Positions 1 through 20,299 are shown, counted from the stretch's first letter. The stretch: 32,000 bases of DNA from Candidatus Heimdallarchaeota archaeon (GCA_030668875.1 DAOVER010000002.1:1-32000); one strand, 5' to 3'. Program-made: numbers and translations. Notes: generated by a model not told the origin, from the sequence alone.

Positions 1-17
1 TTATCATTGTTGTTTAC

Positions 18-242
18 TTGATAACTAAGAAAAGAGATGTACTATACATGATTATTGTCTGTACGCTTGAATTCCCTCTATTTGTGTTTCTAGCATATTG
101 TGACCAGATGATAACTCTTGCTACCCTAGTTGTGCTAGGAGGATTGGTGTATATAAGAGAACCTCTAAAAACACATGCAAAACGAGCCATGGACCTTAAG
201 CTAGCTAAAAAACAGTTAAAGCATGAAAAACAACACCACTAA
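18..242 (+). CDS. Small hypothetical membrane protein (may be 5'-truncated by the window edge; alternative ATG at 48)
   Basis: Two hydrophobic segments followed by a basic tail; the frame is open to the window start; T-rich tract follows. Confidence 0.55.
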   Translation: MITKKRDVLYMIIVCTLEFPLFVFLAYCDQMITLATLVVLGGLVYIREPLKTHAKRAMDLKLAKKQLKHEKQHH

Positions 243-354
243 AACTAACAAAATTCCCTCTTTTTTCTTTTTAAAATAACATAAAATCTCCTTGTTGGAA
301 GGTGAACTACTTAGAACAAAGGACGAGAAGGTCTAGAATTTTCTGTAATTTCAG

Positions 355-705
355 TTATCGCAGATTTAAAGAAATCATAGAAATTACTAATGCAGTTATT
401 GATAGAACTATCGCACTCCATGAAGCTAAAACCTCTAATATTGCTGTTTCACGTTCTTTCATTGTTCTTATCTCTATTGCTAAAGATTCAAGTTCTTTTG
501 TTAGCATAATGTTTGCTAAGTTAAGTTTAATCATTTCTCGTTCTTCTAACCATTTGTAGAAACTTGTTACTTCATCAAAGCCTTTTTCCAATTCCTTCTT
601 TTTCTTGTTCAATTTGAAAATATTGATGACTGTTGTGTCCTTTAGGATTTTTAAGAAGTAATCATCTTTTTGTTTTCTAAATTCATTAATAATATCAACA
701 ATCAT
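355..705 (-). CDS. Hypothetical protein, charged helical region with C-terminal TM helix
   Basis: 116-aa ORF with Lys/Glu-rich helices and hydrophobic C-terminus (VLASWSAIVLSITALVISMISL). Confidence 0.65.
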   Translation of the reverse strand: MIVDIINEFRKQKDDYFLKILKDTTVINIFKLNKKKKELEKGFDEVTSFYKWLEEREMIKLNLANIMLTKELESLAIEIRTMKERETAILEVLASWSAIVLSITALVISMISLNLR

Positions 706-873
706 CCATCCTGCAGAGCTTTTATCTTTCCCAGTAGTATCTTTGCTTGTAAAGAGAACATCTAACTAATTTAGTCTTTTTTCATTTAAAATATCAGCAA
801 ACATACATCTAGTATTCTTAAACGCTTATAATTGTGTTTTGCTTTTTTATACTTAAAACTAGTTTAACAGCTG

Positions 874-1113
874 ATGAGTGAATATTCTGATTATCAGGTA
901 ACAGCTGTAGAATATGAATCAGAGAAAGCTTTCTTTGCCAAGATTAAGAATTTGACAGAGATTTGTATTTGGATTCCTAAATCAGTTGTTGGTCCTGAAA
1001 GAAAAATTAAGCAATGGTTCATAGATCAGAAAAAGAAAGAATTGCTCGAACATGAGAGAATGAAGAAACAGAAAACAATGACAGATTTCATTAGTCGAAA
1101 AACTGCTATTTAG
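874..1113 (+). CDS. Small hypothetical protein of a type seen in viruses/mobile elements
   Basis: 79 aa with an ESEKAFF...IWIPKS pattern I associate with small viral proteins (recollection, not searched); TATA-like ttttatacttaa upstream. Confidence 0.65.
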   Translation: MSEYSDYQVTAVEYESEKAFFAKIKNLTEICIWIPKSVVGPERKIKQWFIDQKKKELLEHERMKKQKTMTDFISRKTAI

Positions 1114-1176
1114 TCTCAACTTGGTTGAAACTAAGATGTATTACAGTAGTTTTTAAAATAATTGGCTCAAGAATAA

Positions 1177-1869
1177 ATGGTTAAATTGAACAAATGCAAA
1201 GAAAGATTTTCACCCATTTGGGATTTTGTGAAAGGGAAGTGGAAATTAATATTAACCGTGCTTTTTTTGACAGGTATAGTTATACTTACAATTTTACTAA
1301 ACTACTTTGGGTATTTAGATACATATCAATTTCTAACAGATCTTTTCTCTGGATTGATTATTGTCATAACAGGTTGGATTTTAGCATGGATAATTGTTCA
1401 TAGATATCAAAGAAGAAACATTGATACTCAAAACAAGAATAAGCTGATTGAAGAGATTGCAGCATTTAAAATATCATTGCGTGAAACCACTCGAGCATGG
1501 TTCAGATGTGCAGATGACATAGACAACAAAAATTTGTGGTATTCTGCATCTGGTAATAGATTAGATATAGAAACTAAACGAGAGATTCTCTATTTTAAGT
1601 TACTAAATATATATTCTAACTATTTAAAAAAAGAATTTAGGAATGTAACAAAAGAGAATAAATCACCAACTTTCAAGCTTAAAGATTTACGTGAAAGTTT
1701 CGATTATTATGTTAATGAAATTTCAAATGGTTTGAATGCACGTGTTTATGATGATAAATCTTCTAAAAGTATTTCCAAGTACGAAAGGGAAGTGCTTCTG
1801 TATTTATCAGCTATTCTACTAGATATTATAGGAAAACCAATTTCCAAAGAGATTAAGAAAAATAACTAA
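1177..1869 (+). CDS. Hypothetical membrane protein (2 N-terminal TM helices plus soluble domain)
   Basis: 230-aa ORF with two hydrophobic stretches in the first 75 aa. Confidence 0.75.
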   Translation: MVKLNKCKERFSPIWDFVKGKWKLILTVLFLTGIVILTILLNYFGYLDTYQFLTDLFSGLIIVITGWILAWIIVHRYQRRNIDTQNKNKLIEEIAAFKISLRETTRAWFRCADDIDNKNLWYSASGNRLDIETKREILYFKLLNIYSNYLKKEFRNVTKENKSPTFKLKDLRESFDYYVNEISNGLNARVYDDKSSKSISKYEREVLLYLSAILLDIIGKPISKEIKKNN

Positions 1870-2068
1870 TTTGAATTGTGAGGGTAGAGGCGGTTTTTTC
1901 ACAGAATGTTGTTAAGTGTGACAATATAATACTATCCTCTTTGTTTCCACGTGGAAACACTTTTTCTTTAGTTGGGAACTTTGATTCAATAAAAGCTAGA
2001 AATAGAAGCATAGCTAAAGGGATAGCACTTATTATTATGGTAGTTAGAAGCGTCTCGTTAATGCTCAT
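1853..2068 (-). CDS. Small membrane protein (71 aa)
   Basis: ATG at 2068 preceded by SD-like AAGAAGGGGGG; N-terminal TM helix LLTTIIISAIPLAMLLFLAFI. Confidence 0.5.
   Translation of the reverse strand: MSINETLLTTIIISAIPLAMLLFLAFIESKFPTKEKVFPRGNKEDSIILSHLTTFCEKTASTLTIQISYFS
1942..1959. promoter_or_regulatory. 18-bp perfect palindrome TGTTTCCACGTGGAAACA
   Basis: Read directly; shares the 12-bp core TTCCACGTGGAA with 3492-3509. Confidence 0.6.
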
Positions 2069-2490
2069 CGTCTCAACCCCCCTTCTTTTTATCTATTATT
2101 GGTTGATCAGTGTCGGGGATTTTGGGCGAGAGGGAAGAGAACCCAAGACGAGAGTTTTTTCTTGTGGGGCGATGATTGGCAGGGAAGAGGGGTTAAGACA
2201 CTGTGCGAGGGTTTTGAGTGCGTTATCTAGTGTGTAAGTGCGATATATCGGGAAATATATAGATGGCATATATAGGGGGGCTATATATCATCAGAGAGTG
2301 TTTTATCTTAAAACATCGGCATTCCATCGTAATAAAGCATGTTACATGATAGCAAACAGTTGTTTCAGACTAGTTAGACTGTATCACCCCCCTATTTTAT
2401 CGTCTCAAGCCTCCTCTTTTTTACCTATATTCTGTTGTTGGTTTGATAGGGGGAGTTTTGCAGGGGAAAGGGACATGAGACGAGAGGAAA
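2041..2490. other. Candidate replication origin / structured non-coding region
   Basis: Two 88-nt elements (2067-2154, 2399-2486) with shared ends flank a TATATA cluster and several short inverted repeats and G/C runs; no convincing ORF. Confidence 0.5.
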
Positions 2491-2539
2491 AGAAAGGGGT
2501 GGTACGGAGATAAGGATCTAAAGAAAAGATTGTCGGAAA

Positions 2540-2740
2540 TTATTTCCGTTTTCCGTATAGGACACCTAATAGGTGGGGTATACGTTTCGGATTCCGTTTT
2601 ATAATCTCTTGTTTCAGCCTTTTCAATGGTGAATATCGTTGTTTTAAGCTTTTCTGGAAACTGTATAATTTAGGTGAAAAAGGAGTGAAAATAGTAGAAA
2701 AGTTGTCTTTATTTACCCAAATTCGAACTATATTACTCAT
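2540..2740 (-). CDS. Small basic protein, possibly ribbon-helix-helix DNA-binding
   Basis: 66 aa from ATG 2740; N-terminus NIVRIWVNKDNFSTI fits a beta-strand-then-helix RHH pattern; weak. Confidence 0.4.
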   Translation of the reverse strand: MSNIVRIWVNKDNFSTIFTPFSPKLYSFQKSLKQRYSPLKRLKQEIIKRNPKRIPHLLGVLYGKRK

Positions 2741-2897
2741 TTTCGAGTAACTATTTTCTAGCAAAACGGAAATTCTGGATTTTGATATTTAGATCCATTA
2801 CATAATAATGGTATTGTTTTGACCTACGTGGACAATCTGTCTATGCAGGTATGATCTAAACTACCTGATGTAATGGTGTCCATTTTGGATACTGTTA

Positions 2898-3239
2898 GTT
2901 GCAATTGATGAATCAGGGAGAGAGTAAATGCAACAAAGTAGAAGAAGCTCTAGATATGATTAAAGAAGCTATAGTTGCAATTGATGAATCAGGGAGAGAG
3001 TAAATGCAACAACGATTACTCTTATGATGTATATTTAGATGAAAATTATCTGTTGCAATTGATGAATCAGGGAGAGAGTAAATGCAACGGATCTTCTTTC
3101 TTGTGCTCTGGAGAACAACTTACTGTGTTGCAATTGATGAATCAGGGAGAGAGTAAATGCAACACTGTAACCATTTCTGAAAAGTGTACTTATTCTATTA
3201 TCGTTGCAATTGATGAATCAGGGAGAGAGTAAATGCAAC
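2898..3239. CRISPR. Mini CRISPR array: 5 identical 37-bp repeats GTTGCAATTGATGAATCAGGGAGAGAGTAAATGCAAC, 4 spacers (39, 41, 38, 39 bp)
   Basis: Repeats at 2898-2934, 2974-3010, 3052-3088, 3127-3163 and 3203-3239; terminal inverted GTTGCA/TGCAAC; unique spacers. Orientation unresolved. Confidence 0.97.
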
Positions 3240-3491
3240 ACAATGAAACAGAAAAGGCTACAGAAAAGTTATTGAATAAGAAAATATTCCGAGGATTCTT
3301 TATTAGAAGGCTTTTAAACCGACTATTAAAAAATATAAGGGATAAATTATGACTTGGGGCTTTGGTTCTCCGAGAGAATACGTTATTTCCCACGATAACC
3401 GTTTCCTTAATGCAATTAAGAAAGAGCACAATAAAACATGAATCTCTTTAGAGCTGCTTACTATAAAGGCTTGAAGTCTCAATTTCATATT

Positions 3492-3509
3492 TTATTCCAC
3501 GTGGAATAA
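3492..3509. promoter_or_regulatory. 18-bp perfect palindrome TTATTCCACGTGGAATAA
   Basis: Read directly; same core as 1942-1959. Confidence 0.6.
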
Positions 3510-3553
3510 TTTCTGTTTTCTTGATCAAGTTATTCTAACCATTCTTTTATTTC

Positions 3554-3691
3554 TCATTGGTCCGAACAAATCAGCTTAAATTTACATTTCTGACATTTTT
3601 TAGAATAAAAATTCCATCTAGAACAATTGCTGGCTTTAGCTTTTTCAATTGTTGGTAGATCCTTGTAAGTTAAATTAGCAGCAGGTTGCAT
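3554..3691 (-). CDS. 45-aa four-cysteine microprotein (absent from the ORF track)
   Basis: My translation: MQPAANLTYKDLPTIEKAKASNCSRWNFYSKKCQKCKFKLICSDQ. ATG directly follows the upstream stop (TAAATG), with AAGGAAGG upstream; motif C-x9-C-x2-C-x5-C. Confidence 0.6.
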   Translation of the reverse strand: MQPAANLTYKDLPTIEKAKASNCSRWNFYSKKCQKCKFKLICSDQ

Positions 3692-5011
3692 TTAGTTTCC
3701 TTCCTTTATTCTGTAAATCTTCTTTCTAGCTCCTTTGCCTTCTCGTTCTTCTTTGAGAGCTGTTATTTTTCCTAAATCTACTAGCTTCCTGATATGATAA
3801 TAGATCCGATTATAATCTAATTGTAAAGTTGTCATAAAGTCCTGGAGAGTATAGCTTTTTTCAGCAAGTAGTTTAAGTATTTCTGTCTGTAAGGAGTCAC
3901 TCCTAGCTTGGTTAGTTCTACTTACTTTGAGAAGTTGTATTTCCTCAGCTAGAAATTCACTCTCTTTTTTCATATTTGTATCATGATTCAGGATAAGATC
4001 AGCTTGATGGTCCATTCTCTGCAGTAGCATTAAATCATTAGTTGCTGTTTGTAGCTGGTATTGGGCTAGCTGATTGACATTATTATCAACTCTTCTTAAT
4101 AAATTATGATTTTCATAATAATCACTATCTAGCTGTTGGACCACATTTCTATTGTAATCTAACACAGAATTAAGTTTAGAAAAACTTTGATTGCTCGAGA
4201 TTGTAAATTGCTTAAGTACAGTATTCATTTTATTGAAAACAGTCCCAATACCTAAGTCTCTCTCATTCCTTTCAAGCTGTTTAATCATTCTATCAACAGG
4301 TATATCTACACGGCTTAATTGGACTTCTTTTCGTAGTCCTTCTTTCTTATTGTAAGCTGTTAAAAGAATATTTTCAAAAGCTTGCACACTAATATAATTA
4401 GCTCCTGCTATTCTCTGAAAATCATAATCTTGGTTCAAATCTAAATTTACTAACTGCATTTTATTATGATCGCTCTTTATACTTTTCAAGTGTAAGACCG
4501 TATCAATTGCAACAATCAAAGAGCGGAATTGATAACAATCTAAAGCTTTCTTCCATCCACTACATTTGAGATCTATCCTGATACTTTGAGTAGCTTTGTA
4601 AAAAGAAAAACGGATAGGTTGATTAAGTTCTAAAAAGGGGACATCTAATTTTTCATCTTTTCTTACAGGGACAGCTCGAATCATAATCATTACTCGATGA
4701 ATGAATAAAGGTTCATCAGGATTGAAAAAGGAATCTAACTCATAAGGGATCTGTTCAAGAGGCTTAGGTTTGAAATGATAGTAGAGATATGGTTTTGTTT
4801 CTGTTCTAGCTATAGAGTATTTTGAGCTGGTTGTTAATCTTGTTAATATTCTTCTAATACTCGAAGCTTTACAATCAGGATAAAGCTGTTTAATGGCTTT
4901 CACTATTTCCCCACAAGTAAGCTTATGATGAGAAGATTCAATTACTGCAATGATAGCTGTAGTTAAGGAAGAATGAATATTCTGTTGAGCTGTATCTTTT
5001 ACTTCTAACAA
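3692..5011 (-). CDS. Putative replication initiator: wHTH + Rep_trans-like catalytic domain + coiled coil + wHTH (~439 aa; ORF track start 5053)
   Basis: SD AGGAGGT 8 nt before TTG at 5011. N- and C-terminal winged-helix patterns. Central motifs LVNLDLNQD and TAYNKKEGLRKE resemble pT181-family RxDxAxD / IRIYNKK / RxE. Confidence 0.6.
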   Translation of the reverse strand: MLEVKDTAQQNIHSSLTTAIIAVIESSHHKLTCGEIVKAIKQLYPDCKASSIRRILTRLTTSSKYSIARTETKPYLYYHFKPKPLEQIPYELDSFFNPDEPLFIHRVMIMIRAVPVRKDEKLDVPFLELNQPIRFSFYKATQSIRIDLKCSGWKKALDCYQFRSLIVAIDTVLHLKSIKSDHNKMQLVNLDLNQDYDFQRIAGANYISVQAFENILLTAYNKKEGLRKEVQLSRVDIPVDRMIKQLERNERDLGIGTVFNKMNTVLKQFTISSNQSFSKLNSVLDYNRNVVQQLDSDYYENHNLLRRVDNNVNQLAQYQLQTATNDLMLLQRMDHQADLILNHDTNMKKESEFLAEEIQLLKVSRTNQARSDSLQTEILKLLAEKSYTLQDFMTTLQLDYNRIYYHIRKLVDLGKITALKEEREGKGARKKIYRIKEGN

Positions 5012-5511
5012 TTTGAATGACCTCCTGAAGTTGAAATGATAAATGAGCGACAAGCGACATAGGGAGATAGGTTAATTGTCGCTCTTTTTTCAAAAATTTT
5101 GAAAGTGATAATCTGTTGAATAAGAACCTTTGAAACAATAAATAAGCTAATAATTGTTACTAATATTTTTAAAGAATGTTTTTCAAAAATATAGGTAGTT
5201 GAGACAATTACTTTTTCAAAAATAATCTGTTTAACCTTCCTTTTTAGAAGGTAGTGTTTACATACGAAATACGGGTGAATAACAACAGTAGAGCTTATTA
5301 AACCCTTAATTTCCTCTGGACAATGATTCAAAGGATCTACTAGATGGTTAACTAAGTTATTCAAAGTGACAAGAAGGTATAAAGTCGTTTTAGAACCTCT
5401 GAAGCTCTCTGCCTTACATTTTCCTATTATACCCTTATCAGAAGGTAACTTATTAGAAGGAGTTCTAATTAAGAAGGGAGTACCTTTGCTTCGAGTGGAG
5501 ATTGTCTCCAA
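5005..5511 (-). CDS. Possible hypothetical protein (168 aa)
   Basis: Its stop overlaps the TTG start of the putative Rep, but the sequence has no recognisable features and spans repeated 12-mers; may be non-coding. Confidence 0.25.
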   Translation of the reverse strand: METISTRSKGTPFLIRTPSNKLPSDKGIIGKCKAESFRGSKTTLYLLVTLNNLVNHLVDPLNHCPEEIKGLISSTVVIHPYFVCKHYLLKRKVKQIIFEKVIVSTTYIFEKHSLKILVTIISLFIVSKVLIQQIITFKIFEKRATINLSPYVACRSFIISTSGGHSNC

Positions 5512-5803
5512 TCGTCAAAAGCAATATTCTATAAATTACGTGCTAATTTTGGGTGATGGGTGGGTCTAGTCTTAGTTGTTAAAGAAGAAATTTCCAGAAA
5601 CCTTCTGATCCAACAATTTGAAAAAAAGAACTTTAAAAATAATTCAGTTGGTTTCGAAATTTATATTTATATAAGGTTGGGAGAAAATTAACTAGTTCTA
5701 CTAAGCTATTTATCGATGCTATTATAGTTTTGTCTTTTGAGAAATAATGTGAACAAAATAGCTAAGTTCATTTTATTAAGTTTCTAATTCTCTCTCTGTT
5801 AGT

Positions 5804-6971
5804 TTATTGAGTAGTCTCCTCTAGCGCTGTTATAGAATCCCTAGTTCCTGGTATTAAATCAATTGATAGAAGAATGTCAACTTCGATTCCTTGTTTATTA
5901 ATGAACTTTGTCTCATATACTTTTGGTACTGATTCAGGATCGATTCTTCTTTGTTTATGCAATTCAAGTAATCTTTGTAATTCTACATTAGGAATGTGAT
6001 TTGTCCAACTCATTTTTCCTTCTACCTCCTCTTTGGTGAAGCCAGTTATTCGTTCAAACTGCGAATTTACTCTTTTCATTATTGTATCTTCGCCAAAGAT
6101 ACATATTGCAGATGAACTAATTTCGAAAATAGATTGATAGAGATTGTGTGATCTTATCAATTCATTCTCTGCATTTTTTTGTTCTGAGATATCCCGGAAT
6201 ATTCCTAAGAGGTAGCTCCCATCATTAGTTTCAATAATATTAGAACTTATACTTACTGGGATCCGTTCATTATTAGTTGTTAAAATCTCAGATTCATAGA
6301 CGAATATTTTTCCAGAAGCATGGACGTTAAAAGCTTCCATTGTCTTTTTTATGCGGTCATGTGGATGAAGGTCATCTGCATTCATTTTCGTGATGTCGTA
6401 ATAAGTTTTACCTATCAATTTTTCTGCTTGTTGATTGCAATCTATCAATTTTCTTGTAATTGGATCTGCTACAAAAACAGCATCGGGAATTGTTTCGAAT
6501 AGATTTCTATATTTTATCTCGCTAGCAAGTAATGCTTCTTTTGTTTCCAAACTATCTATTATTTCAATGATTTTATGGTAGAGTTCTATAAATTGACTTT
6601 TAGCCTCTCCTCCTTTAAGAACATATCCTGCAGCACCTAGAGTAAATGCTTCAACAACTACTTCTTCCCTTCCTCTTCCTGTAAAAGATAACAAAAGGAG
6701 TGTCGATATTATGTCTTTTTAACTCCTTCAATATTTCCAAACCATTTGTGTCTATCATAAGATAATCACAAATAATAAGATCAAATTTGTTTTCCTTTAT
6801 TTTTGATACAGCTTCTGCAGGATTAACCTGTGAATCAATCACAAAAGAGTCATTACTTAGCCTTCGCAAGTAATTTTTGCTAATGTTAAGAAAATCTTCA
6901 TCATCATCAATATGAATAATTCTAACTATATTACTACTTTCTTTTTGGATTTTTAATCCATTTTCAACCAT
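5804..6971 (-). pseudogene. REC-PAS-PAS signalling protein split by a +1 frameshift
   Basis: Receiver N-part (IIHIDDDEDFL...DLIICDYLM) in 6651-6971 continues as FTGRGREE in another frame. One extra T at 6683-6686 (ATCTTTTACA vs expected ATC TTT ACA). Confidence 0.8.
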
Positions 6972-7396
6972 TTAAAACACTTCATCTTAATTTTTTTCAA
7001 GTAAGCGTGCTTATCTACGTTCCGATATGCTAAAAGCTTGATAAGTTTTGCTTTAATTCAATGTTTAGTTTTGATTGGGATATTGAATCTATTACGGACT
7101 TCTTTTGAAAGTAATTAATTTTCAAATTATTCTATTCATTGAATTTTTTAATGTATTGTGAGGAAATAGTGTTAATAAATCTCTCGAGATATGTTTTCTC
7201 AGTTCTTTGATGTGATTTTATGAGATTTGTCAACTTCAAGAAAATGCTGATTAGATTATCTATTCTAACTCTTGTTTTGACTGACGTCTCGATTATTAAA
7301 ATGGCAATTTAAGAGAAGAAAGAAAACAAAAGAGCATCAAGAGAATAAGACAAACCACAATCAAGTGAAAAAAATAGAAATACTAGCTAATGACTT

Positions 7397-10324
7397 CTAC
7401 TTGTTAGGGATTGTTATTCTGAAATTCGTTAGTTTTTCTTTTGTATCTATTGAAATTTTCCATCCATGTCCTTCAACAATTTTCTTAACAATAGAAAGCC
7501 CTAATCCAGTACTACCTTTTTTAGTTGAATAACCTCTATCAAATACTTTACTGATGATTTTCTCGTCTATTAGCTTTCCATCATTACTAATTGAAAACAC
7601 TACTTTACCCTTGTTTTCTATTTTAGTGACACTTAATTTGTCTGGTTTCCCATGCAATATTGCATTTTCAAATAGATTTTTGAAAACTTGAGACAGTTTA
7701 CCATTGTCTCCTTTAATAGTTCCCAAGCTGTCTTTATTGAATTTAATTCTTTTTGGAATGATAACATCAGCTACTGTCTCAACTAGTCTATCCAAATCAA
7801 CTTCATCTTTTTTCTCTACTGTAGTTCCTGCTTCTGCTAGTTCAATAGAATGTTCTAATAGATTTCCTACATAATTTGTTCTTCGAAGAATTTTCTCAAA
7901 ATAAAGGTCTTCATACTTTTCCTTTAGTTGATCAACATACCCTTCAATTGCAGTTAAGCTATTTCGAATATCGTGACCCATGAAGTGGGCAAAATCACTT
8001 AATTCATCTTTTTGTTTGCTAATTTCATCTTCAACTTTTTTTCTTTTGGTTATATCAATTAAAGAAGCGAGAAAGTTTTTAGTTCCTGGGACACTTTTAA
8101 CAGTGAGAATAATATCTCTAATTCTTCCATCACTACTAATGAATCTGCTTTCATATTGAACAGGAACCTTTGAGGGGTCTTCTTTTCGTATTTCATTAAA
8201 ATCTATCATCATATCAAGTTCCGGCTTCGGTATAAATTCCAACCATTTTCTCTTTCCTTCGACATCTTCTTTCTTGAAACCTGAAATGCTTTCCATTCTT
8301 GAATTAAAGAGAAGTATTGTCCCCTCTTCATCAAAAAGTAGGTTTGCAGTTCCTGTTGTTTCAAATAGGATTCTATAGAGATTGTATGATTTTTGAAGTT
8401 CCTCTTCTCTTCTCTTTCTTTCTGAGATGTCTCTGACTAAAGAAAGCATGACTTTTTTTCCTCTGAAATCGAAAATGTGGGCACTTGCCTCAACTGGAAT
8501 GATCTTTCCTTCTTTTGTTTTATGTGAAGCCTCAAAAGTCATTTGTTTCTTCTTAACGACATCTCTAACGATTTCTGCTACTCTTTTTACACTTAATGAA
8601 GCAGGTAGTTCTGTAGGAGACATCTTTAGAAATTCTTCCTTTGTGTATCCCAGCATTTTTGTTGCATTATCATTTACTTCCAAAAAGTTTTCAGGCATTC
8701 CATTATTATCAATAGTGTAGAGATAAATAGCAGCATTTGCATTCTGGAAAATATATCTGAATTTTTCTTCGCTTTCCTTCAGTTTCTTTTCAGCTTCACT
8801 TTGTTTTGTAATATCTCTGGCAACTGTTAAGATGGTTTTTCTCCCCCCTATAGTTAAGTTATGAGAGTTAAATTCAACGATTCGAGAATTACCATCCTTG
8901 TTTACTATAGTACTTTCAAAAGTTATTTTTCCTGTTTTTCTGAAAATTTTACCAATATTTTTATTTTTCGAGAACAATCCTTCCTTATCTAAATCATAAG
9001 GAGTCATTTCTAGTAATTCTTTCCTAGAATACCCTGTCCATTCGCATACTATATCATTTACTTCAATGAATTTACCTAGTTTATTATTTTTATCTAAATA
9101 ATGGATAAACATACCATCTTGTGTGCTGTTAAATATTTGTCTAAATTTTTCTTCATTTTCTCTAAGTTCTTTTTCTGCCTCTATTCGCTTAGTAATATCT
9201 CTACTTTTAGACATTATAATTTGCTTATTACCTAGATTTACTAGATGCACGCTAAGTTCCTGGTGGTAAGGAGTACCATCTTTTCTTTTTGCTAGTGTCT
9301 CACAAGTAATGTATTTCTCTTCTATGATATTTTTCAAAATATTTTCCGCAAATTCTGGATCATCATACGTTTCAAAATCTAAAACGTTTTTACCTACCAT
9401 CTCCGATCTTTCATATCCGTACCTTTCTAAACTACTTTTGTTCACATCAATAATCGTTCCATCAGTTTCTACAATTGAAATACCATCAAATGAATTTTCA
9501 AAAATCAACCTGAATTTTTCTTCACTTTCTTTTAGTTCTTTTTCCGCTTCTTTTTGTTCAGAAATATCAATTCCTATCCCTCCAATCCAAGAAGCCTTTC
9601 CCTTCAAATTGATAGGAAATTTGATTGTGTTAAAAGGGTGTCCAAATCTTTGTTTATCTGCTCGAGTTTCTGTTGTAACAGTTATTCCCTCTTCTCTTAT
9701 TTTTTTGTCTTCTTCTTCTATAGTTCTAGCTAATTCTGAAGGTAATAACTCACCTACTGTTTGACCCAGTGAATCTCTAATTCCAGTTTTCTCTTTCATA
9801 TATTTATTAACAAACCACATTTTTCCCTTGTCATCTTTTATGTAAGCTATAGCTGGCAAATTGTCCATAAAGTGAGAAAATCTTTCTTCACTGTCTCGAA
9901 GAGCTTCTTCAGCTCGTTTACGTTTTACAACATTTTTGATGTCATTAATCAATTCTGTAAACTGACTTTTAGCATCTCCACCCTTTCTTAAGTATGAATC
10001 TGCTCCTAGATTAAGAGCTCTAATAACAACTTCTTCTCTGCTTCGACCAGTAAAAATAATAAAAGGAATATCAATATTTTTTTCCTTAATGCTCTTTAAT
10101 AAATCCAAACCATCCATTGAAGGCATTAGAAAATCACATACAATGGCATCATACTTCTTCCTCTGTAAAGTTTCGATAGCTTGAGTAGGATCAGATAGTG
10201 GGTCTATTTGAATCTCTCCGTTGGTGATGTTTTCAACAAAATCTTTGCTTAAAGTAAGAAAATCAACTTCATCATCAATATGCAAGACTTGAACTGTTCT
10301 ATTATTTTTATGGCTTTTAATCAT
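7397..10324 (-). CDS. Hybrid sensor histidine kinase: REC + 5 PAS + HisKA + HATPase_c
   Basis: VLHIDDE...VCDFLMP receiver; five SEE(K/R)F / NLY PAS starts; H-box AHFMGHDIRNSL; N box FKNLFENA; G2 box GSTGLGLSIV. ATG 10324 preferred over 10381. Confidence 0.93.
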   Translation of the reverse strand: MIKSHKNNRTVQVLHIDDEVDFLTLSKDFVENITNGEIQIDPLSDPTQAIETLQRKKYDAIVCDFLMPSMDGLDLLKSIKEKNIDIPFIIFTGRSREEVVIRALNLGADSYLRKGGDAKSQFTELINDIKNVVKRKRAEEALRDSEERFSHFMDNLPAIAYIKDDKGKMWFVNKYMKEKTGIRDSLGQTVGELLPSELARTIEEEDKKIREEGITVTTETRADKQRFGHPFNTIKFPINLKGKASWIGGIGIDISEQKEAEKELKESEEKFRLIFENSFDGISIVETDGTIIDVNKSSLERYGYERSEMVGKNVLDFETYDDPEFAENILKNIIEEKYITCETLAKRKDGTPYHQELSVHLVNLGNKQIIMSKSRDITKRIEAEKELRENEEKFRQIFNSTQDGMFIHYLDKNNKLGKFIEVNDIVCEWTGYSRKELLEMTPYDLDKEGLFSKNKNIGKIFRKTGKITFESTIVNKDGNSRIVEFNSHNLTIGGRKTILTVARDITKQSEAEKKLKESEEKFRYIFQNANAAIYLYTIDNNGMPENFLEVNDNATKMLGYTKEEFLKMSPTELPASLSVKRVAEIVRDVVKKKQMTFEASHKTKEGKIIPVEASAHIFDFRGKKVMLSLVRDISERKRREEELQKSYNLYRILFETTGTANLLFDEEGTILLFNSRMESISGFKKEDVEGKRKWLEFIPKPELDMMIDFNEIRKEDPSKVPVQYESRFISSDGRIRDIILTVKSVPGTKNFLASLIDITKRKKVEDEISKQKDELSDFAHFMGHDIRNSLTAIEGYVDQLKEKYEDLYFEKILRRTNYVGNLLEHSIELAEAGTTVEKKDEVDLDRLVETVADVIIPKRIKFNKDSLGTIKGDNGKLSQVFKNLFENAILHGKPDKLSVTKIENKGKVVFSISNDGKLIDEKIISKVFDRGYSTKKGSTGLGLSIVKKIVEGHGWKISIDTKEKLTNFRITIPNK

Positions 10325-10444
10325 TTTTCCTGCGTCTGGATTATCCAAAGAAAAAACCTCATATATACTTATGAAAAACATGTATAAAATTCTTCGTTCT
10401 GTTCCATGAGCTAAACATTAAATAATAAGTTTTAAAATCGAATT

Positions 10445-10762
10445 TTGTATAAGAGAGGATATATTTTGCATCTAAAAGACAAAGTTGGCAAGAAAATTAC
10501 ATTAAGGGGGAAAATTTCAGATGTCCCTTGGCAGCACATGATAGAGGATGTAGAAAACTACAATCACATCTATTATTTTGATTTAGAAGGTGGGAATCAA
10601 ATAGTAATCTATTCGAAAGCAGAGATACAATGCGCTAGTTCTCTTTCAGTTACTAGAAAAGTAATAGAAGTAAGAGGGAAATCAAAACGGCCAGGTAAGA
10701 TAGATGATATTACTTATGTAGAATTCCACATTATCGTCGACGACTGGACTTGTTTAGACTAA
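10445..10762 (+). CDS. Hypothetical protein, OB-fold-like
   Basis: GKKITLRGKIS...IEVRGK...IIVDDW beta pattern; 105 aa. Confidence 0.7.
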   Translation: MYKRGYILHLKDKVGKKITLRGKISDVPWQHMIEDVENYNHIYYFDLEGGNQIVIYSKAEIQCASSLSVTRKVIEVRGKSKRPGKIDDITYVEFHIIVDDWTCLD

Positions 10763-10833
10763 ACTACTTGAGATTGGAAATATTGATTAATTCGAAATTA
10801 CAATGATATCTAGGGATAATTCAAAATTATAAA

Positions 10834-11700
10834 ATGCGAAGATGTTGTGATAAAATGCTTGATGAGGATGATATGAAGTGTCTTTTGGAAAGTCTGATGA
10901 ATAAAGATCCTCATGTTCGTGTTTTTACTATAAATTCAATAGTCGATAACAGTAAAAGAGAAACTGCTGTTAATGCTGTCATCGACGCTCTTTTAGATGA
11001 CACTGGTGAAGTTCGGGCTAGGGCTGCTTGGGCCTTAGGTAAAATCCAAAGCAAAAAAGCAATAGAATCTCTAGTCCAATCACTAAATGACGATAATTAT
11101 AATGTTAGAAAAAATGGTCTAAGATCATTAGGAGAACTTGTTGCAATAGATTCAATCCAAGATATTGTAATAAAATTAGAAGATAGCCATTGGGAGGTAA
11201 GAAATGAAGCAGCTGTTGTTCTTGATTATTTAGGATGGGTATCAAGCAACGATAAGGAAACAGCTTACCACCTCATAGCAAAAGGAAGGTGGGAAAACGT
11301 GCTTCAAATTGAAAACTTACATGTTGAATTGTTGTTTTCCTTTTTAGGTGATGAAAATAGTGAAGTACAAGGGCATATAGCATGGATTCTAGGCGAAAAA
11401 AGGAAATCTCAAGCAGTTCAACCTCTCTATGATCTTTTTATGACAGCAAAACTTCATGATGTGAAAGAAAAGGCTTCAGCAGCTATAAGTAAAATAGGTG
11501 GAAAAGACGCTGTAGAATTATTACAAGTTGCTTTACATGACCAAAATTGGTTCATTAGAAAATGCGCTGCAACCTCTCTAGGTTTGATAGAAGACAAATC
11601 AGCTATAGAATCCCTTAAATTACTTATAAATGATCCTAACAGATTTGTAAGTCAAAGTGCTCTAGAAGCATTAAAACGAATCGATGATAAAAATAGTTGA
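10834..11700 (+). CDS. HEAT-repeat (PBS lyase-like) protein
   Basis: Repeated L.D....VR..AA.ALG motifs. Confidence 0.9.
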   Translation: MRRCCDKMLDEDDMKCLLESLMNKDPHVRVFTINSIVDNSKRETAVNAVIDALLDDTGEVRARAAWALGKIQSKKAIESLVQSLNDDNYNVRKNGLRSLGELVAIDSIQDIVIKLEDSHWEVRNEAAVVLDYLGWVSSNDKETAYHLIAKGRWENVLQIENLHVELLFSFLGDENSEVQGHIAWILGEKRKSQAVQPLYDLFMTAKLHDVKEKASAAISKIGGKDAVELLQVALHDQNWFIRKCAATSLGLIEDKSAIESLKLLINDPNRFVSQSALEALKRIDDKNS

Positions 11701-11790
11701 ATTTATCCACACCTTTAGAGAGATATATTTAAAATAATTACATACTTTTTAAGAATAGATAGAAGAAAATAGCATAATCAGTAGAACCTC

Positions 11791-13089
11791 TTGGAGGAAA
11801 ACATTATGGAAGATATACGCAAAAAACTAACAATTTCTCAAGAAAACTTGGACTCTGTTCAGAAGTTCTTCATGGATGAAAACAATCCCTTCATCACTGA
11901 TCTAATTCAAGTTATTGAGAAACATGGTGGAGTAGAAGAAATTAACAAGAAGTATACAGAATCCAGAAAACCAGAAAATATTTACAAAAAACTGGAAAAA
12001 ATCAAACCTGAATACATAGACGATTTGGATTGGCTGATTAAACAGCGAGATACTGATGCGTTTATCAGTGAAAGTGAATATAGAAGAAAGATTCTGGGAA
12101 ATGCTGTCGATCAAATGAGTTTTGATGATTCATATGCAGTTACACTAGAACTATCTGCATGTCAATATTTTCCGTTTCTAATTAAAGGCGCAGAAGAAAT
12201 GATCAAAAAGAAAGATTTGATGCCAGGTAGGATAATTCGTGTTCGAGCAATGAAAGAACAAGAAAAAGATGGTGATTTGTTAGCAATGACAGCAGCAGTC
12301 GATATTATTGGTGCATCAAGAGTAGAGACTCTCGATACTAAAGGAACTTCTCCTGGACCTGATGGAATGCCAGTGAATATTCATCTTGGAGGACCAGCAA
12401 CAATAACTGGTTACTTTGGAGGTGTAGGGCAACCCAATGATTTTGCTCTAAAGTGGGTGGATGAATTCCTCTATTATTACACAAATTATGGAGTGAAAAG
12501 TGTTCTAAACATCAACCCTGGAACAGTAATTTTGGGTTATTTGATGTATAAGCTTGGAATAAATAACGAATTCAAAATTTCTGTTTATATGGGTAATGAT
12601 AATCCTTACTCTGTGCTTTGGACATTGATGACTGCCAAACTGTTCTCCAGAGCTGATGGAACTAGCCCTCTTATTGGATTTAATCTATCTAATGCAGTTG
12701 ATAATTGGACAATCGAAATGAGCTCACATGTTCGTAAGAATTTTGGTTTTGAGGATGTTGTTCGTCTAGAACATCATATTATTGAAACATGGAAATCAAT
12801 AGTTCGTCAACCATATGATAGAACACAAGAGCTTCTAGAGCTTGCTAAGAAAGTTAAAAACATTAGTGCGAAACATGAGGGCGGTCCTGTAGATATAGAT
12901 CCAACTCGTGAACACCCTTCAGATATTCTTGATTATTTCCTTTCAAAGGAACAGATTACTGAACAAGGAATCTGGGATGGTCTTATGCAGAATTACTACG
13001 ACAGGCAAACCTCAATCAATAATACAGCCAAAGCTCTTACTGAAAATGGTATTGCTTTTATTGCAGCTAGAAAACTTCATCATAAGTAA
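11791..13089 (+). CDS. Conserved protein of unknown function (432 aa, enzyme-like)
   Basis: Long globular ORF with glycine-rich motifs (HLGGPATITGYFGG, SAKHEGG); first gene of a metabolic cluster. Confidence 0.85.
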   Translation: MEENIMEDIRKKLTISQENLDSVQKFFMDENNPFITDLIQVIEKHGGVEEINKKYTESRKPENIYKKLEKIKPEYIDDLDWLIKQRDTDAFISESEYRRKILGNAVDQMSFDDSYAVTLELSACQYFPFLIKGAEEMIKKKDLMPGRIIRVRAMKEQEKDGDLLAMTAAVDIIGASRVETLDTKGTSPGPDGMPVNIHLGGPATITGYFGGVGQPNDFALKWVDEFLYYYTNYGVKSVLNINPGTVILGYLMYKLGINNEFKISVYMGNDNPYSVLWTLMTAKLFSRADGTSPLIGFNLSNAVDNWTIEMSSHVRKNFGFEDVVRLEHHIIETWKSIVRQPYDRTQELLELAKKVKNISAKHEGGPVDIDPTREHPSDILDYFLSKEQITEQGIWDGLMQNYYDRQTSINNTAKALTENGIAFIAARKLHHK

Positions 13090-13104
13090 AATCAGGTGAA
13101 ATGA

Positions 13105-14265
13105 ATGAAAGAAATTGCTACAGGAATGCATAAGATACTTGGTGAAGGAGCATTTGAGTACCTTGCAAAAGCTCAAGCTGAAGAACGGAAAGGAAAAAAT
13201 GTTCTTCACTTTGAAATAGGTCAACCTGATTTTCCTACACCCGAGCACATAAAACAAACAGCTTATGAGGAGATTAAAGGAAATTATACCGGCTATGTTT
13301 CTGCAACGGGTATTTTTGAATTAAAACAAGCAATCCAAGATGAAATCGAACAAACTAGAGGATATCGTCCAAGTATTGAACAAATTCTAGTACTTCCAGG
13401 GGCAAAACCTGGAATTTTCTTCACCATGTTAGGTCTTGTAAGTCCAGGTGATGAAGTGATGTATCCCGATCCTGGTTTCCCTACCTATGGTTCTGTAACA
13501 AAATATCTTCAGGCAGTTGATGTTCCAATAGCCCTAAAAGAAAAGAATCAATTCAAGCTAGATCCCGCAGATGTTGAAAATAGAATAACACCCAAAACTA
13601 AGCTAATTATATTGAATAGTCCTCAAAACCCAACAGGTTCTGTAATGACCAAAAATAAGCTCTATCAAATAGCTGAATTAGCTGAGAAACACGACATCTA
13701 TATTCTTGCAGATGAAATATATTCAAAAATGCTATATGAAGCAGATTTTCACTCAGCAACAGTTCTAGATGAAGCGAAGAAAAGAACATTTTTACTAGAT
13801 GGATTCTCAAAATCCTATTCTATGACAGGCTGGAGACTAGGCTACTTAGTTGGACCAGAAACATTAATCGAAAAGATGGGGCTAATTATGATAAACGCTT
13901 TATCTTGCACTACTTCATTCGTTCAAAAAGCTGGGATAACTGCTTTGAAGGGTGATCAAAAACCATTGAAGAAAATGATGGAAGCTTTTAAAGAGAGAAG
14001 AGATGCAATAGTTAAAGGATTGAATGAGATTACTGGTTTTTCGTGTTTAACTCCTCAAGGAGCATTTTATGCTTTCCCAAACATAATAGATACAGGAATG
14101 AATTCAAAAGAAATAGCTGATCATATACTCTACAAAGCTGGTGTTTGTTGTCTTCCTGGCTCAGCTTTTGGACCATATGGGGAAGGTTATCTAAGATTTA
14201 GCTATGCTACTTCAGTTGAAAACATCCTACAAGCTATGAAACAGATCAAGGAATCCTTTGATTAG
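13105..14265 (+). CDS. PLP-dependent aminotransferase class I/II (aspartate aminotransferase-like)
   Basis: GQPDF, NSPQNPTG, DEIY, GFSKSYSMTGWRLGY (PLP Lys), GAFY motifs. Confidence 0.93.
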   Translation: MKEIATGMHKILGEGAFEYLAKAQAEERKGKNVLHFEIGQPDFPTPEHIKQTAYEEIKGNYTGYVSATGIFELKQAIQDEIEQTRGYRPSIEQILVLPGAKPGIFFTMLGLVSPGDEVMYPDPGFPTYGSVTKYLQAVDVPIALKEKNQFKLDPADVENRITPKTKLIILNSPQNPTGSVMTKNKLYQIAELAEKHDIYILADEIYSKMLYEADFHSATVLDEAKKRTFLLDGFSKSYSMTGWRLGYLVGPETLIEKMGLIMINALSCTTSFVQKAGITALKGDQKPLKKMMEAFKERRDAIVKGLNEITGFSCLTPQGAFYAFPNIIDTGMNSKEIADHILYKAGVCCLPGSAFGPYGEGYLRFSYATSVENILQAMKQIKESFD

Positions 14266-14401
14266 CTTAACACAAAACATCGAATTTATTCTCGATTTTT
14301 TTCTTTTTTACATCTAATTTTTTGTGTAAACAATCTCTTCTTGACAGCAAACTTATAAGTTGTGTTTCTAGAAGTTGGACGACAATAAAAATAGAGGTTA
14401 A

Positions 14402-15442
14402 ATGATGGAATTTAGAATTGCATTTATTGGGTTTGGCGTTGTTGGACAAGGATTTGCAGAGATACTTGTTGAACAAGAACAAGTACTGAAAGAGCGATAT
14501 GATTTCGACTTCAAGGTAGTAGCTATTTCAGATACTATGAAAGGTTCAGTCTTTGATGCTCAAGGATTAGACCTAAGCAAATTGCTTTCCTTAGTTAAGG
14601 AAACAGGGAAGATTGAAGATTATCCTGAAGGCATAAAAGGATGGGATTCTTTAAAGACGATTACTGATTCTACTGCGAATTTGATATTGGAAGTAGCATG
14701 GACTGATTTGAAAACAGGTGAGCCTGCAATTACCCATGTCAGAACCGCATTAAAAAATAAGAAACACGTTGTCCTTACCAACAAAGGTCCTATAGCTTTG
14801 ATTGTCCGAGAATTATTGGCATTAGCTAAAGAAAACGATGTTGAAATGAGATATGAAGGGACAGTGCTAAGTGGTACTCCCGCACTTAATTTAGGTCTGT
14901 ACAATCTTGCTGGATCTGGAATAACTAAAGCTAAAGGTATAGTCAATGGTACAACTAATTATATCTTAACTGAGATGGAGAAAGGATTGGATTATGAATC
15001 TGCCTTAAAACAAGCACAAGAATTAGGATATGCAGAAGCTGATCCTACAGCTGATGTTGAAGGTTATGACGCTCTAGGAAAAATTGTTATACTTGCTAAT
15101 ACTGTTATGGGAGCTAATCTAAGCAAAGATGAACCATCCTGTGAAGGTATAACAAAAATTACAGCTGAAGACATAACAAAAGCAAAGGCTGAAGGTTTCA
15201 GATGGAAATTAATTGCTGGCGCTGAAATCAAAGAGGATGGTTCGGTTGAAGCATATGTGCGTCCAGAAAAAATCCCTCTTAATCACCCCTTAGCTAATAT
15301 CATGGGTCCAACCAACGCCTTAACTTATACTACAAAATATCTAGGTGACGTTACAATAGTTGGACCTGGTGCTGGACGAGTTCCAACTGGTTATGCACTA
15401 TTGACAGATATTTTGGATATCAACAGAATAGTAAAGGAATAA
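14402..15442 (+). CDS. hom: Homoserine dehydrogenase
   Basis: GFGVVGQG Rossmann motif, VVLTNKGP, YEGTVLSGTP, GIVNGTTNYIL, AQELGYAEADPTADVEG.D...K. Confidence 0.93.
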   Translation: MMEFRIAFIGFGVVGQGFAEILVEQEQVLKERYDFDFKVVAISDTMKGSVFDAQGLDLSKLLSLVKETGKIEDYPEGIKGWDSLKTITDSTANLILEVAWTDLKTGEPAITHVRTALKNKKHVVLTNKGPIALIVRELLALAKENDVEMRYEGTVLSGTPALNLGLYNLAGSGITKAKGIVNGTTNYILTEMEKGLDYESALKQAQELGYAEADPTADVEGYDALGKIVILANTVMGANLSKDEPSCEGITKITAEDITKAKAEGFRWKLIAGAEIKEDGSVEAYVRPEKIPLNHPLANIMGPTNALTYTTKYLGDVTIVGPGAGRVPTGYALLTDILDINRIVKE

Positions 15443-15462
15443 ATTCTTCGGAGAGGAATATT

Positions 15463-17250
15463 ATGGGATATATGCATAAATATCTGGATGTAGATTTATC
15501 TAACCAGAAAATATATGAAAAGAAACTTGACCCTGTACTAGCAGAGAAATACATTGGGGGTAAAGGTCTAGGGGCTAAGATATTATATGATAACTTAAAA
15601 ACTGGTATCGATCCATTAGGACCAGAAAACATCATTCTTTTCATGACTGGGCCACTAACTGGCACATCAGTTGTTACATCAGGAAGATGGTGTATAGTAA
15701 CTAAATCTCCTCATACAGGGATATATCTAGATAGCCAGATTGGCGGAAAATTCGGTCATCGATTGAAAAGAGCTGGCTATGATTATATCTTAGTAAGGGG
15801 TAAATCTGATTCTCCTTGCTATTTACATGTATCTTCAGATGGTTATGAAATAATCTCGGCTTCTGAATTGTGGGGTAAAGGAACCTTTGAAACAGAAGAA
15901 ATTCTCAAACAAAAACATCCAAAAGCTGAAGTTGCTTCAATTGGACCTGCTGGAGAAAATCTAGTAACTTTTGCTAACATCATGACAGACAAATCTCATA
16001 TGGCTGGAAGAGGTGGAGCAGGAGCAGTGATGGGATCTAAAAATCTCAAAGCTGTAGTTGCTGGAGGTACATTGAAAATTGATTCAGCAAATGACAGTTT
16101 CAAAGAACTAACAAAAACCTTCAAAAGCAAAGTGCAAAACGATCCTGGTGTCCAAAATCGTCACAGAATTGGAACAATGATGTGGGTTAACATGGCAAAT
16201 CAAGCAGGTTTTCTGCCAACAAGAAATTACCAATCTGGTGTTTTTGAATCAGCTGAGAAAATCTCCGGAGAAAAAATGATAGAGGAAAACACTTACGCAC
16301 ACAGAGCATGTTATAATTGCTTAATAGCTTGCGGCAAAGCAAACAAGTTTGATAAAGGTAAATATGCTGGTTTAGATGTTGAAGGGCCAGAGTATGAAAC
16401 AACTGCATTATTAGGGTCAAACTGTGGAATTACAGATTTAGCAGCTGTGGCAAAATCAAGTCAACTCTGTGATGATTTGGGAATTGATACAATTACTTCT
16501 GGAGCAACAATCAGTTTTGCAATGGAGTGTATTGAAAAGAAAATTCTGAAACAAGATAGTGTAGAGAACCTTGTATTTGGCAACGATGAAGCAGTCCTAC
16601 AGATGTTACAATTAATTGCTCACAAAGAAGGAATAGGGGTACTTTTCTCTAAAGGATCAAAAGCTGCAGCTGAAAAACTTGGCAATGACTCAAGTGATTT
16701 TGCTATACAAGTTAAAGGACTAGAACTAGCTGGTGTCGAACCAAGGGGTTCTTTTGGTATGGCATTAGCATATTCTACAGCTGATAGAGGTGCATGCCAC
16801 CAAAGGTGTTGGACACCTTCCGCAGAACTGAGAGGAGACCTCAAACGTTTCTCAATGGAAGGAGTTCCTAAATTTGTCAAAGAATCTCAAGATGAAAGAG
16901 CAGCATGTTTCTCTCTTGTTGTCTGTGATTTCCTACCTTTTGATGTCCCCGAGATGGTGGAAATGCTAAATGCTGCTACTGGTTTTTTATATACTCCTGA
17001 AAGTTATATAACAACTGGAGAAAGAATCTGGAATACTACTCGAATGTTCAGTGTTCGTGAAGGTATAACAGCATTAGATGATGTCCTTCCAAAAAGATTC
17101 TCAAAGGAAGCAATGCCAGAAGGTCCTGCAAAAGGTCAAGTTGTATCTGAAGAAGTTCTTGAACAAGCAAAAGCTGAATATTATAATTTAAGAGGATGGG
17201 ATTCCAATGGGATCCCTAGAAATGAAACTTTACAAAGGTTAAGGATTTAA
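15463..17250 (+). CDS. aor: Aldehyde:ferredoxin oxidoreductase (tungstopterin family)
   Basis: GGKGLG, SIGPAGE, GRGGAGAVMGSKNLKA, CDDLGIDTI, RGACH, YYNLRGWD motifs. Confidence 0.93.
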   Translation: MGYMHKYLDVDLSNQKIYEKKLDPVLAEKYIGGKGLGAKILYDNLKTGIDPLGPENIILFMTGPLTGTSVVTSGRWCIVTKSPHTGIYLDSQIGGKFGHRLKRAGYDYILVRGKSDSPCYLHVSSDGYEIISASELWGKGTFETEEILKQKHPKAEVASIGPAGENLVTFANIMTDKSHMAGRGGAGAVMGSKNLKAVVAGGTLKIDSANDSFKELTKTFKSKVQNDPGVQNRHRIGTMMWVNMANQAGFLPTRNYQSGVFESAEKISGEKMIEENTYAHRACYNCLIACGKANKFDKGKYAGLDVEGPEYETTALLGSNCGITDLAAVAKSSQLCDDLGIDTITSGATISFAMECIEKKILKQDSVENLVFGNDEAVLQMLQLIAHKEGIGVLFSKGSKAAAEKLGNDSSDFAIQVKGLELAGVEPRGSFGMALAYSTADRGACHQRCWTPSAELRGDLKRFSMEGVPKFVKESQDERAACFSLVVCDFLPFDVPEMVEMLNAATGFLYTPESYITTGERIWNTTRMFSVREGITALDDVLPKRFSKEAMPEGPAKGQVVSEEVLEQAKAEYYNLRGWDSNGIPRNETLQRLRI

Positions 17251-20207: not shown

Positions 20208-20299
20208 AAGATTTTCCTCAATTTTTATAACAAGATTGTTTAAAAATACGATTCTATAAAAGCTTTTTTAGCTAGTTTGTAAAATTATTGAGCTCATTT

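Follow-up and report, generated by a model that had tools for sequence, protein, structure and literature searches.

A cas-less mini-CRISPR array carried by an integrated mobile element of Heimdallarchaeaceae

A stretch of 32,000 nucleotides (nt) from a Candidatus Heimdallarchaeota archaeon (GCA_030668875.1 DAOVER010000002.1:1-32000; the window, below) contains a short CRISPR array that lies inside an integrated mobile genetic element and has no cas genes of that element beside it. The 110.7-kb contig C40, of which the window forms the first 32 kb, belongs to the metagenome-assembled genome (MAG) G000, which comprises 3.23 Mb in 99 contigs and is 92% complete. It is well supported that the array is a gain-or-loss cassette in a variable zone of a family of integrated Heimdallarchaeaceae elements. 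The best explanation of its function, held with moderate confidence, is that of a mobile-element mini-array dependent on Cas proteins provided in trans by the host, serving either in interference against competitors or as a repeat decoy. The features that bear on this directly are the following, with positions counted from the first letter of the window.

1-5500, no strand: window part of the integrated mobile element (identity contrast, run contigs, empty site)
2735-3525, + strand: array cassette, made up of leader motifs, array and trailer (pairwise alignment of the window with the sister locus L020)
2817-2851, no strand: imperfect leader palindrome ACCTACGTGGACA-ATC-TGTCTATGCAGGT (pal1), recurring in G021 and L023
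2872-2897, + strand: leader-proximal palindrome AATGGTGTCCATTTTGGATACTGTTA, directly before repeat 1
2898-3239, + strand likely transcribed: mini-CRISPR array of five A-type repeats and four spacers (repeat/spacer analysis)

The array consists of five identical 37-nt copies of GTTGCAATTGATGAATCAGGGAGAGAGTAAATGCAAC, starting at 2898, 2974, 3052, 3127 and 3203, with four spacers of 39, 41, 38 and 39 nt, all of them unique; a preliminary description of the stretch, made from the sequence alone, had it right on this point. CRISPR arrays are generically recognised by at least three near-identical repeats of 23-47 nt and unique spacers of similar length, and here five repeats of 37 nt are found at 100% identity. 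The repeat bears 6-bp inverted ends at its termini and, within the G000 genome, is restricted to 2898-3239. The same array is present in three samples with minor differences, spacer 3 being absent from L016 and L017. In L017 (JGI 3300042089), a 21-bp internal tandem duplication lengthens spacer 1 to 60 nt, which is either a real variant or an assembly artefact.

The orientation of the array can be judged from its relatives. Repeats processed by Cas6 usually carry GAAAC at their 3' end. Since the B-type repeats of sister elements, read on the window + strand (...CTAACTAAGTAGAAGTGAAAC), end in GAAAC, and since the two variant repeats of the A array in the related genome G021 sit at its leader-distal end, the array is most likely transcribed on the window + strand.

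That the array is carried by a mobile element, as initially claimed, is borne out by a contrast in sequence identity, a sharp junction and an empty site. Positions 1-5501 are 98-99% identical to positions 9511-14936 of L016 (70-kb JGI contig L016/L025), whereas the host backbone (window 7276-15717) is only 87.5% identical to L016/L025. In contigs assembled from four runs of four studies, the junction at 5499/5501 is sharp and is followed by three different continuations elsewhere. In X5 and a second X1 strain, position 5499 is joined to 7383/7395, so that the PAS and receiver genes of the window are missing; in X6 and X7, another sequence lies beyond 5499/5501; a source-like run continues as the window does. 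At its other side, the element stops at a 115-nt segment ahead of two DUF2229 genes. In the congener G013 (contig C132), 758 bp occupy the place where L016/L025 holds approximately 15.6 kb, and a single G013 contig links the DUF2229 genes, the 115-nt segment, a PHP gene and the histidine kinase. The integration site shows no tRNA and no Rfam family, and no Rfam match was obtained in the window. The element region is present at 0.93 or more of the sampled words (at least that fraction in each case) in cold-seep and marine-sediment runs from three studies; no RNA run was among those listed.

The window starts at the contig end, inside the element, and the lack of upstream sequence is an assembly limit. 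The whole element spans approximately 15.6 kb in L016/L025, where about 10 kb lie further upstream of the part seen in the window. This upstream portion carries many ORFans and a 249-amino-acid (aa) serine recombinase of the Resolvase type. Also encoded by the L016/L025 element are a 733-aa AAA/winged-helix protein (Pfam PF27228, a family apparently named after a Methanothermobacter plasmid protein, to judge from the style of the locus tag), a ribbon-helix-helix (RHH) protein and a ClpP/SDH-type protease (phrog_11747, 1.5e-85). Pfam and PHROGs searches of the element proteins, the upstream portion of about 10 kb included, matched no Cas family. Inspection of the upstream sequence for an integrase or cas genes, which had been proposed as a check, thus yielded a recombinase and no cas gene. 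The earlier suggestion of a small rolling-circle replicon is not supported, given that the element is about 15.6 kb long and integrated, has no HUH Rep, and encodes a serine recombinase and an AAA/winged-helix protein.

Comparison with sister elements places the array in a defined zone. L020, the closest distinct element, lacks the 790-bp cassette (~2735-3525); its winged helix-turn-helix (wHTH) protein is 85% identical to the 439-aa wHTH protein of the window. In this element family, a variable zone downstream of the genes for the wHTH protein and a 45-aa microprotein holds cas-less arrays or solitary repeats of two families, A (37 nt) and B (~29 nt). In G021 (contig C193), a genome of the same genus, the element is integrated beside RagA-like GTPase genes and its wHTH homologue is 67% identical. 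The order there is wHTH gene, microprotein gene and a 2.7-kb non-coding zone, within which two B repeats are followed by a solo A repeat, two B' repeats, a GC-rich block and a six-repeat A array. The G021 A repeat, in window orientation GTTACAATTAATGAATCAGTAAGCTAGTAAATGCAAC, is 84% identical to that of the window, and both keep conserved 5' and 3' segments. Four of the six G021 repeats are identical and two are variants; the spacers, 39-41 nt long, include none shared with the window. L023 has three B repeats, L018 a solitary one and L019 two degenerate B-like copies. Across the window, G021, L023, L018 and L019, the repeats thus occupy the equivalent position downstream of the wHTH and microprotein genes, with turnover of the spacers.

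The leader motifs recur in the same zone. The palindrome at 2817-2851 abuts the solo A repeat in G021 (L112 11275-11305) and is also found upstream of the L023 B array, while AATGGTGTCCATTTTGGATACTGTTA, single-copy in G000, precedes B-type repeats in G021 and L018. In addition, a short tandem array of ATGTCAGATAT(C/A) units lies immediately past the G021 A array (L103 1797-1889; G021:C193 ~25145-25237).

The nearest homologues of the window proteins are named Heimdallarchaeaceae or Asgard group, in agreement with the Asgard-like genome that had been proposed. Among the relatives, Cas1 is present in 11 of 30 genomes of the family and in 5 of 23 of the genus. A full type I-B operon (Cas6, Cas8b/TM1802, Cas7, Cas5, Cas3, Cas4 and Cas1) is found on contig C8 of G008, a genome of the same genus, with the repeat GTTTAAGTTAAACTTAGTAGTGTGAAAAT; the G005 repeat is similar. 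In G001 and G003, type I loci carry repeats of 37 nt that start with GTTGCA and recur with a 74-76-nt period. The B repeats of the sister elements are significantly similar to the host I-B repeats of G008 and G005 (shuffle p <= 0.0005 to 0.01); the G008 I-B repeat is unlike the 37-nt A repeat of the window. The A family occurs in only two of 82 genomes of the class, the window genome and G021.

Taken with its position inside a mobile element that has no cas genes of its own, the array would be explained if it were transcribed on the + strand from an element-specific leader and if the resulting RNA, once processed, acted only via Cas proteins supplied in trans by the host. The outcome would be either interference against competing elements (superinfection exclusion) or the soaking up of host Cas proteins by a repeat decoy.

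A close precedent is found in the related Sulfolobales viruses SPV1 and SPV2, which carry cas-less, leader-bearing mini-arrays and stand-alone repeats at equivalent positions with different spacers (Medvedeva et al. 2019, PMC6858448). The likeness extends to the absence of cas genes, the presence of a leader, the location on a mobile element, the same position with different spacers, and the stand-alone repeats. There are also differences: the SPV1/SPV2 arrays have one or two spacers, compared with four here; the present element, which is no known virus, is integrated and encodes a serine recombinase; no host array matches the A repeat or the leader palindrome, and the present host shows no cas genes; and reciprocal targeting between elements was not found here. 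A chromosomal orphan array, C4, is known from Ca. Heimdallarchaeum (Wu et al. 2022, PMC8813620); it is likewise found in a genome of the Heimdall group with no adjacent cas genes. In contrast to C4, the window array lies inside a mobile element that is 98-99% identical between diverged hosts, and its repeat family is confined to that element family.

Several results weigh against a mini-array dependent on host Cas proteins. As the preliminary description had stated, there is no cas gene in the 32-kb window (Pfam and NCBIfam searches). Across the host MAG, Cas1, Cas2, Cas6_C, RAMP, DevR and Cas_Cas7 were also unmatched, although at 92% completeness this absence is not proven; an I-B operon like that of G008 was not found in G000, and Cas1 was unmatched in G021, the second genome with an A array. 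A crude scan of G000 for further CRISPR-like arrays gave none besides 2898-3239. A comparison of the repeat with host arrays, suggested at the outset, therefore had no other array in G000 to draw on, and neither the repeat nor the leader matches a CRISPR-Cas system of the host. The similarity of the A repeat to the 37-nt type I repeats of G001 and G003 is not above that of shuffles (p = 0.10 and 0.42). No cas-linked relative of the A repeat was found in the 82 class genomes, 185k species genomes, JGI metagenome contigs or IMG/VR. Exact and end-anchored searches with the A repeat, in which near-identical records may have gone unseen, gave no array in IMG/VR or the JGI contigs and only chance single matches in the species genomes; the B-repeat core matched only unrelated terminator hairpins in IMG/VR. 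The AATGGTGTCCATTTTGGATACTGTTA palindrome is not found in host I-B leaders, unlike the situation in the Sulfolobales virus arrays.

The spacers give a similar picture. None of the four window spacers has a protospacer in G000, the fetched loci, IMG/VR or the 82 class genomes, where the IMG/VR search used codon-degenerate patterns and databases of Asgard mobile elements are sparse; the spacers of G021 and L023 are likewise without a protospacer. The many weak BLAST matches of spacer 1 in the class genomes were rejected as chance, since they reflect common 'EALDMIKE'-type helices in unrelated genes. Between samples the spacers are nearly static, and neither polarised nor ongoing acquisition was seen. 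Confidence in the function is moderate because there is no cognate Cas for the A repeat, the host appears to be cas-less, and the spacers are static and were found to have no targets. A fossil array is therefore conceivable, as is, with low probability, an unrecognised effector.

The strongest of the alternatives, though still an unlikely one, is an orphan array, fossil or hitch-hiking, that recombination once took from a host CRISPR locus and that is now carried passively, inert in cas-less hosts such as this one. It would account for the lack of detected cas genes in the host MAG, for spacers that are constant across samples save for one deletion and one duplication and have no targets, and for the dispensability of the cassette, which is absent from L020. 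Decay, however, would not be expected to leave all five window repeats identical, nor four identical repeats beside two variants in G021. The two A arrays share no spacer, yet their repeats are 84% identical with conserved 5' and 3' segments, and the leader palindrome is kept before both array types in four elements. Because the repeats are identical, the spacers turn over while the repeats are conserved, and the palindrome is retained, the conservation of repeat and leader suggests selection rather than decay.

A second alternative, which we regard as rather improbable, concerns decoys alone. RNA anti-CRISPRs (Racrs) are solitary repeat units of phages and plasmids that mimic CRISPR repeats (Camara-Wilpert et al. 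2023, PMC10651486), and by analogy repeat-mimic RNAs of the present elements might bind to the host's Cas6 or Cas7 and so weaken type I immunity against the element, making the spacers irrelevant. As with Racrs, repeat-like sequences are found on cas-less mobile elements, and the sister elements carry solitary repeats; in G021 and L018, solo repeats have the same upstream palindrome. The two repeat families on the G021 element would match the type I systems of the host family, of which there is more than one, and the repeats are similar, rather than identical, to host repeats. A regular five-repeat array with canonical unique spacers, however, exceeds what a decoy needs and differs from the solitary Racr unit, the A repeat appears to mimic no known host repeat, and the present host shows no Cas to inhibit.

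Far less probable is an undescribed RNA-guided module, with an effector that would be either the 439-aa and 45-aa protein pair or a host TnpB/Cas12f-like protein of about 640 aa acting in trans. Its appeal lies in the confinement of the A repeat to the element family with no cas-linked cognate, and in the 32 TnpB-type matches in G000, three of which are about 640 aa long. Against it, no anti-repeat or trans-activating CRISPR RNA (tracrRNA) candidate was found in G000, where complementarity to the repeat is not above chance, and the ~640-aa family is multi-copy in 24 of 24 genus genomes, compared with A arrays in two. The 439-aa protein appears, from its matches and predicted model, to have wHTH folds only. 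The preliminary description had envisaged the array and the two neighbouring proteins as an undescribed module; an obligate one is not supported, the gene pair being kept in the array-less L020 and L024 and also standing beside two unrelated repeat families. Of the 439-aa homologues, whose co-occurrence with arrays had been proposed as a check, those of G021, L023, L018 and L019 are accompanied by repeats and those of L020 and L024 by none. A type V-F (Cas12f/Cas14) CRISPR system was rejected on the same grounds, there being no effector in the element, no anti-repeat, and a ~640-aa family that is ubiquitous in the genus. In length and ends, the window repeat may resemble the Cas14a1/Cas12f repeat. 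The matches in G000 are to TnpB/Cas12f1-like_TNB, many of them at contig ends (e.g., C95:33972-35909, C48:36907-38799 and C37:2144-3961), and for the ~640-aa family, PDB sequence matches cover the RuvC/Zn part only (8hr5 'Transposase', 9nzq Cas12f).

Equally improbable is the alternative that the repeats are not CRISPR but iterons or a centromere-like site for the winged-helix protein in replication or partition of the element: the 6-bp terminal inverted ends, the nearby gene for a DNA-binding protein, the several surrounding palindromes and the lack of Cas or CRISPR RNA evidence would fit, but the unique, CRISPR-like spacers of variable length (38-41 nt) are fully replaced between elements, the B repeats found at that position have homologues in genuine I-B repeats of hosts, L020 and L024 retain the wHTH gene with no repeat at all, and two unrelated repeat families would require two binding specificities.

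The array with host-supplied Cas proteins thus remains the preferred reading, and the genes and motifs around it provide its setting. The further features of the element and its flank are as follows.

3-242, + strand: 3' part of the gene for a 156-aa membrane protein, truncated where the contig begins (full gene at L025 3803-4273)
1177-1869, + strand: 230-aa predicted membrane protein with no family match (open reading frame (ORF) list, Pfam), present in L016, L017 and L025
2064-2162, no strand: GC-rich inverted-repeat block, copy A, outer arms CGTCTCA / TGAGACG, conserved in sister elements
2396-2490, no strand: second, more diverged copy of the GC-rich inverted-repeat block (comparison with copy A)
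3554-3691, - strand: 45-aa four-cysteine microprotein (tblastn in sister loci)
3692-5011, - strand: 439-aa wHTH protein, marker gene of the element family (profile searches, AlphaFold, Foldseek)
5005-5511, - strand: 168-aa ORF at the element end, with relatives of 211 aa in L016 and 161 aa in G021
5501-7390, - strand: strain-variable flank outside the element, with a PAS protein and a receiver domain (run contigs, Pfam)

The 439-aa protein had been described as Rep-like. Profile searches in Pfam and NCBIfam gave only weak winged-helix matches, to DUF7669 at the N-terminus and to HTH_5/Sta1 at the C-terminus. An AlphaFold model built with 11 homologues is mediocre (mean pLDDT 61); the predicted layout starts with a winged helix at the N-terminus, continues with a beta-rich middle and a long coiled coil (a helix of about 110 residues) and closes with an ArsR/PadR-like wHTH domain at the C-terminus. 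Foldseek comparison of this model with the PDB returned Phr/PadR/ArsR-type regulators only, and the ESM Atlas likewise gave wHTH proteins. The profile and Foldseek matches, all to wHTH proteins, albeit for a model of mean pLDDT 61 with an unassigned middle domain, lend no support to an HUH Rep, and the Rep-like assignment is not confirmed. About a dozen homologues are known, all from Asgard sources. Given the conserved palindromes, it is a plausible guess that the protein regulates the array zone.

The 45-aa ORF is taken to be a real gene, because its Cys4 motif follows the wHTH gene in six sister loci: tblastn finds the motif RNCSKWNFYSxKCxxCxYxxIC as a partner of the wHTH gene in L018, L019, L020, L023, L024 and L112. 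A perfect palindrome, TTCCACGTGGAA, flanks the array cassette on both sides (window 1945-1956 and 3495-3506) and is also present at positions 1100, 2764 and 3212 of L024, in non-coding parts of the element family. It is a candidate regulator-binding site.

The GC-rich block, previously called origin-like, consists of units of about 95 nt that are 79% identical to G021 L112 12284-12464 and 84% identical to L024 (3122-3191). It is GC-rich within an AT-rich element, and a T-run follows it in the window and in G021. Covariation and the consensus stem are both weak, and the fold stability is no greater than that of shuffles. What can be recognised are conserved GC-rich inverted repeats; neither an origin nor any rolling-circle feature was found. 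The block could be a small RNA or a protein-binding site.

Outside the element, genes for a PAS-domain protein of 296 aa and a receiver-domain protein of 106 aa lie between the element end and a hybrid histidine kinase; in L016, G013 and G021 this pair is replaced by a PHP-domain gene. Contig C92 of the same MAG (G000:C92:8441-9054) ends in a paralogue of the 156-aa membrane protein that is approximately 70% identical, as estimated by eye from the translation, and lies beside the boundary segment. The ends of C92 and C40 each carry the 3' half of such paralogous genes. A related arrangement exists at this site in G021, and tandem or rearranged elements may lie between the DUF2229 genes and the histidine kinase in both the G000 MAG and G021. 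In L019, a SIR2_2-domain protein and an AAA_23 protein, 611 aa each, are encoded at 14809-16644 and 19059-20894; both may be defence genes carried by this element family.

Viruses and plasmids are known to use cas-less mini-arrays as a weapon in inter-element conflict, a practice documented mainly in Sulfolobales and bacteria. No description of such arrays in Asgard archaea was found in the literature searched (PMC8813620, PMC11529989, PMC11705971). What emerges from the locus described here is a defined family of elements that has an array zone, repeats of two families and an upstream palindrome specific to the elements. A puzzle comes with it: no Cas partner is known for a repeat family that is well kept, and the hosts are apparently cas-less. 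If a cognate Cas or targets were found, conflict between elements would become trackable in uncultured Heimdallarchaeaceae.

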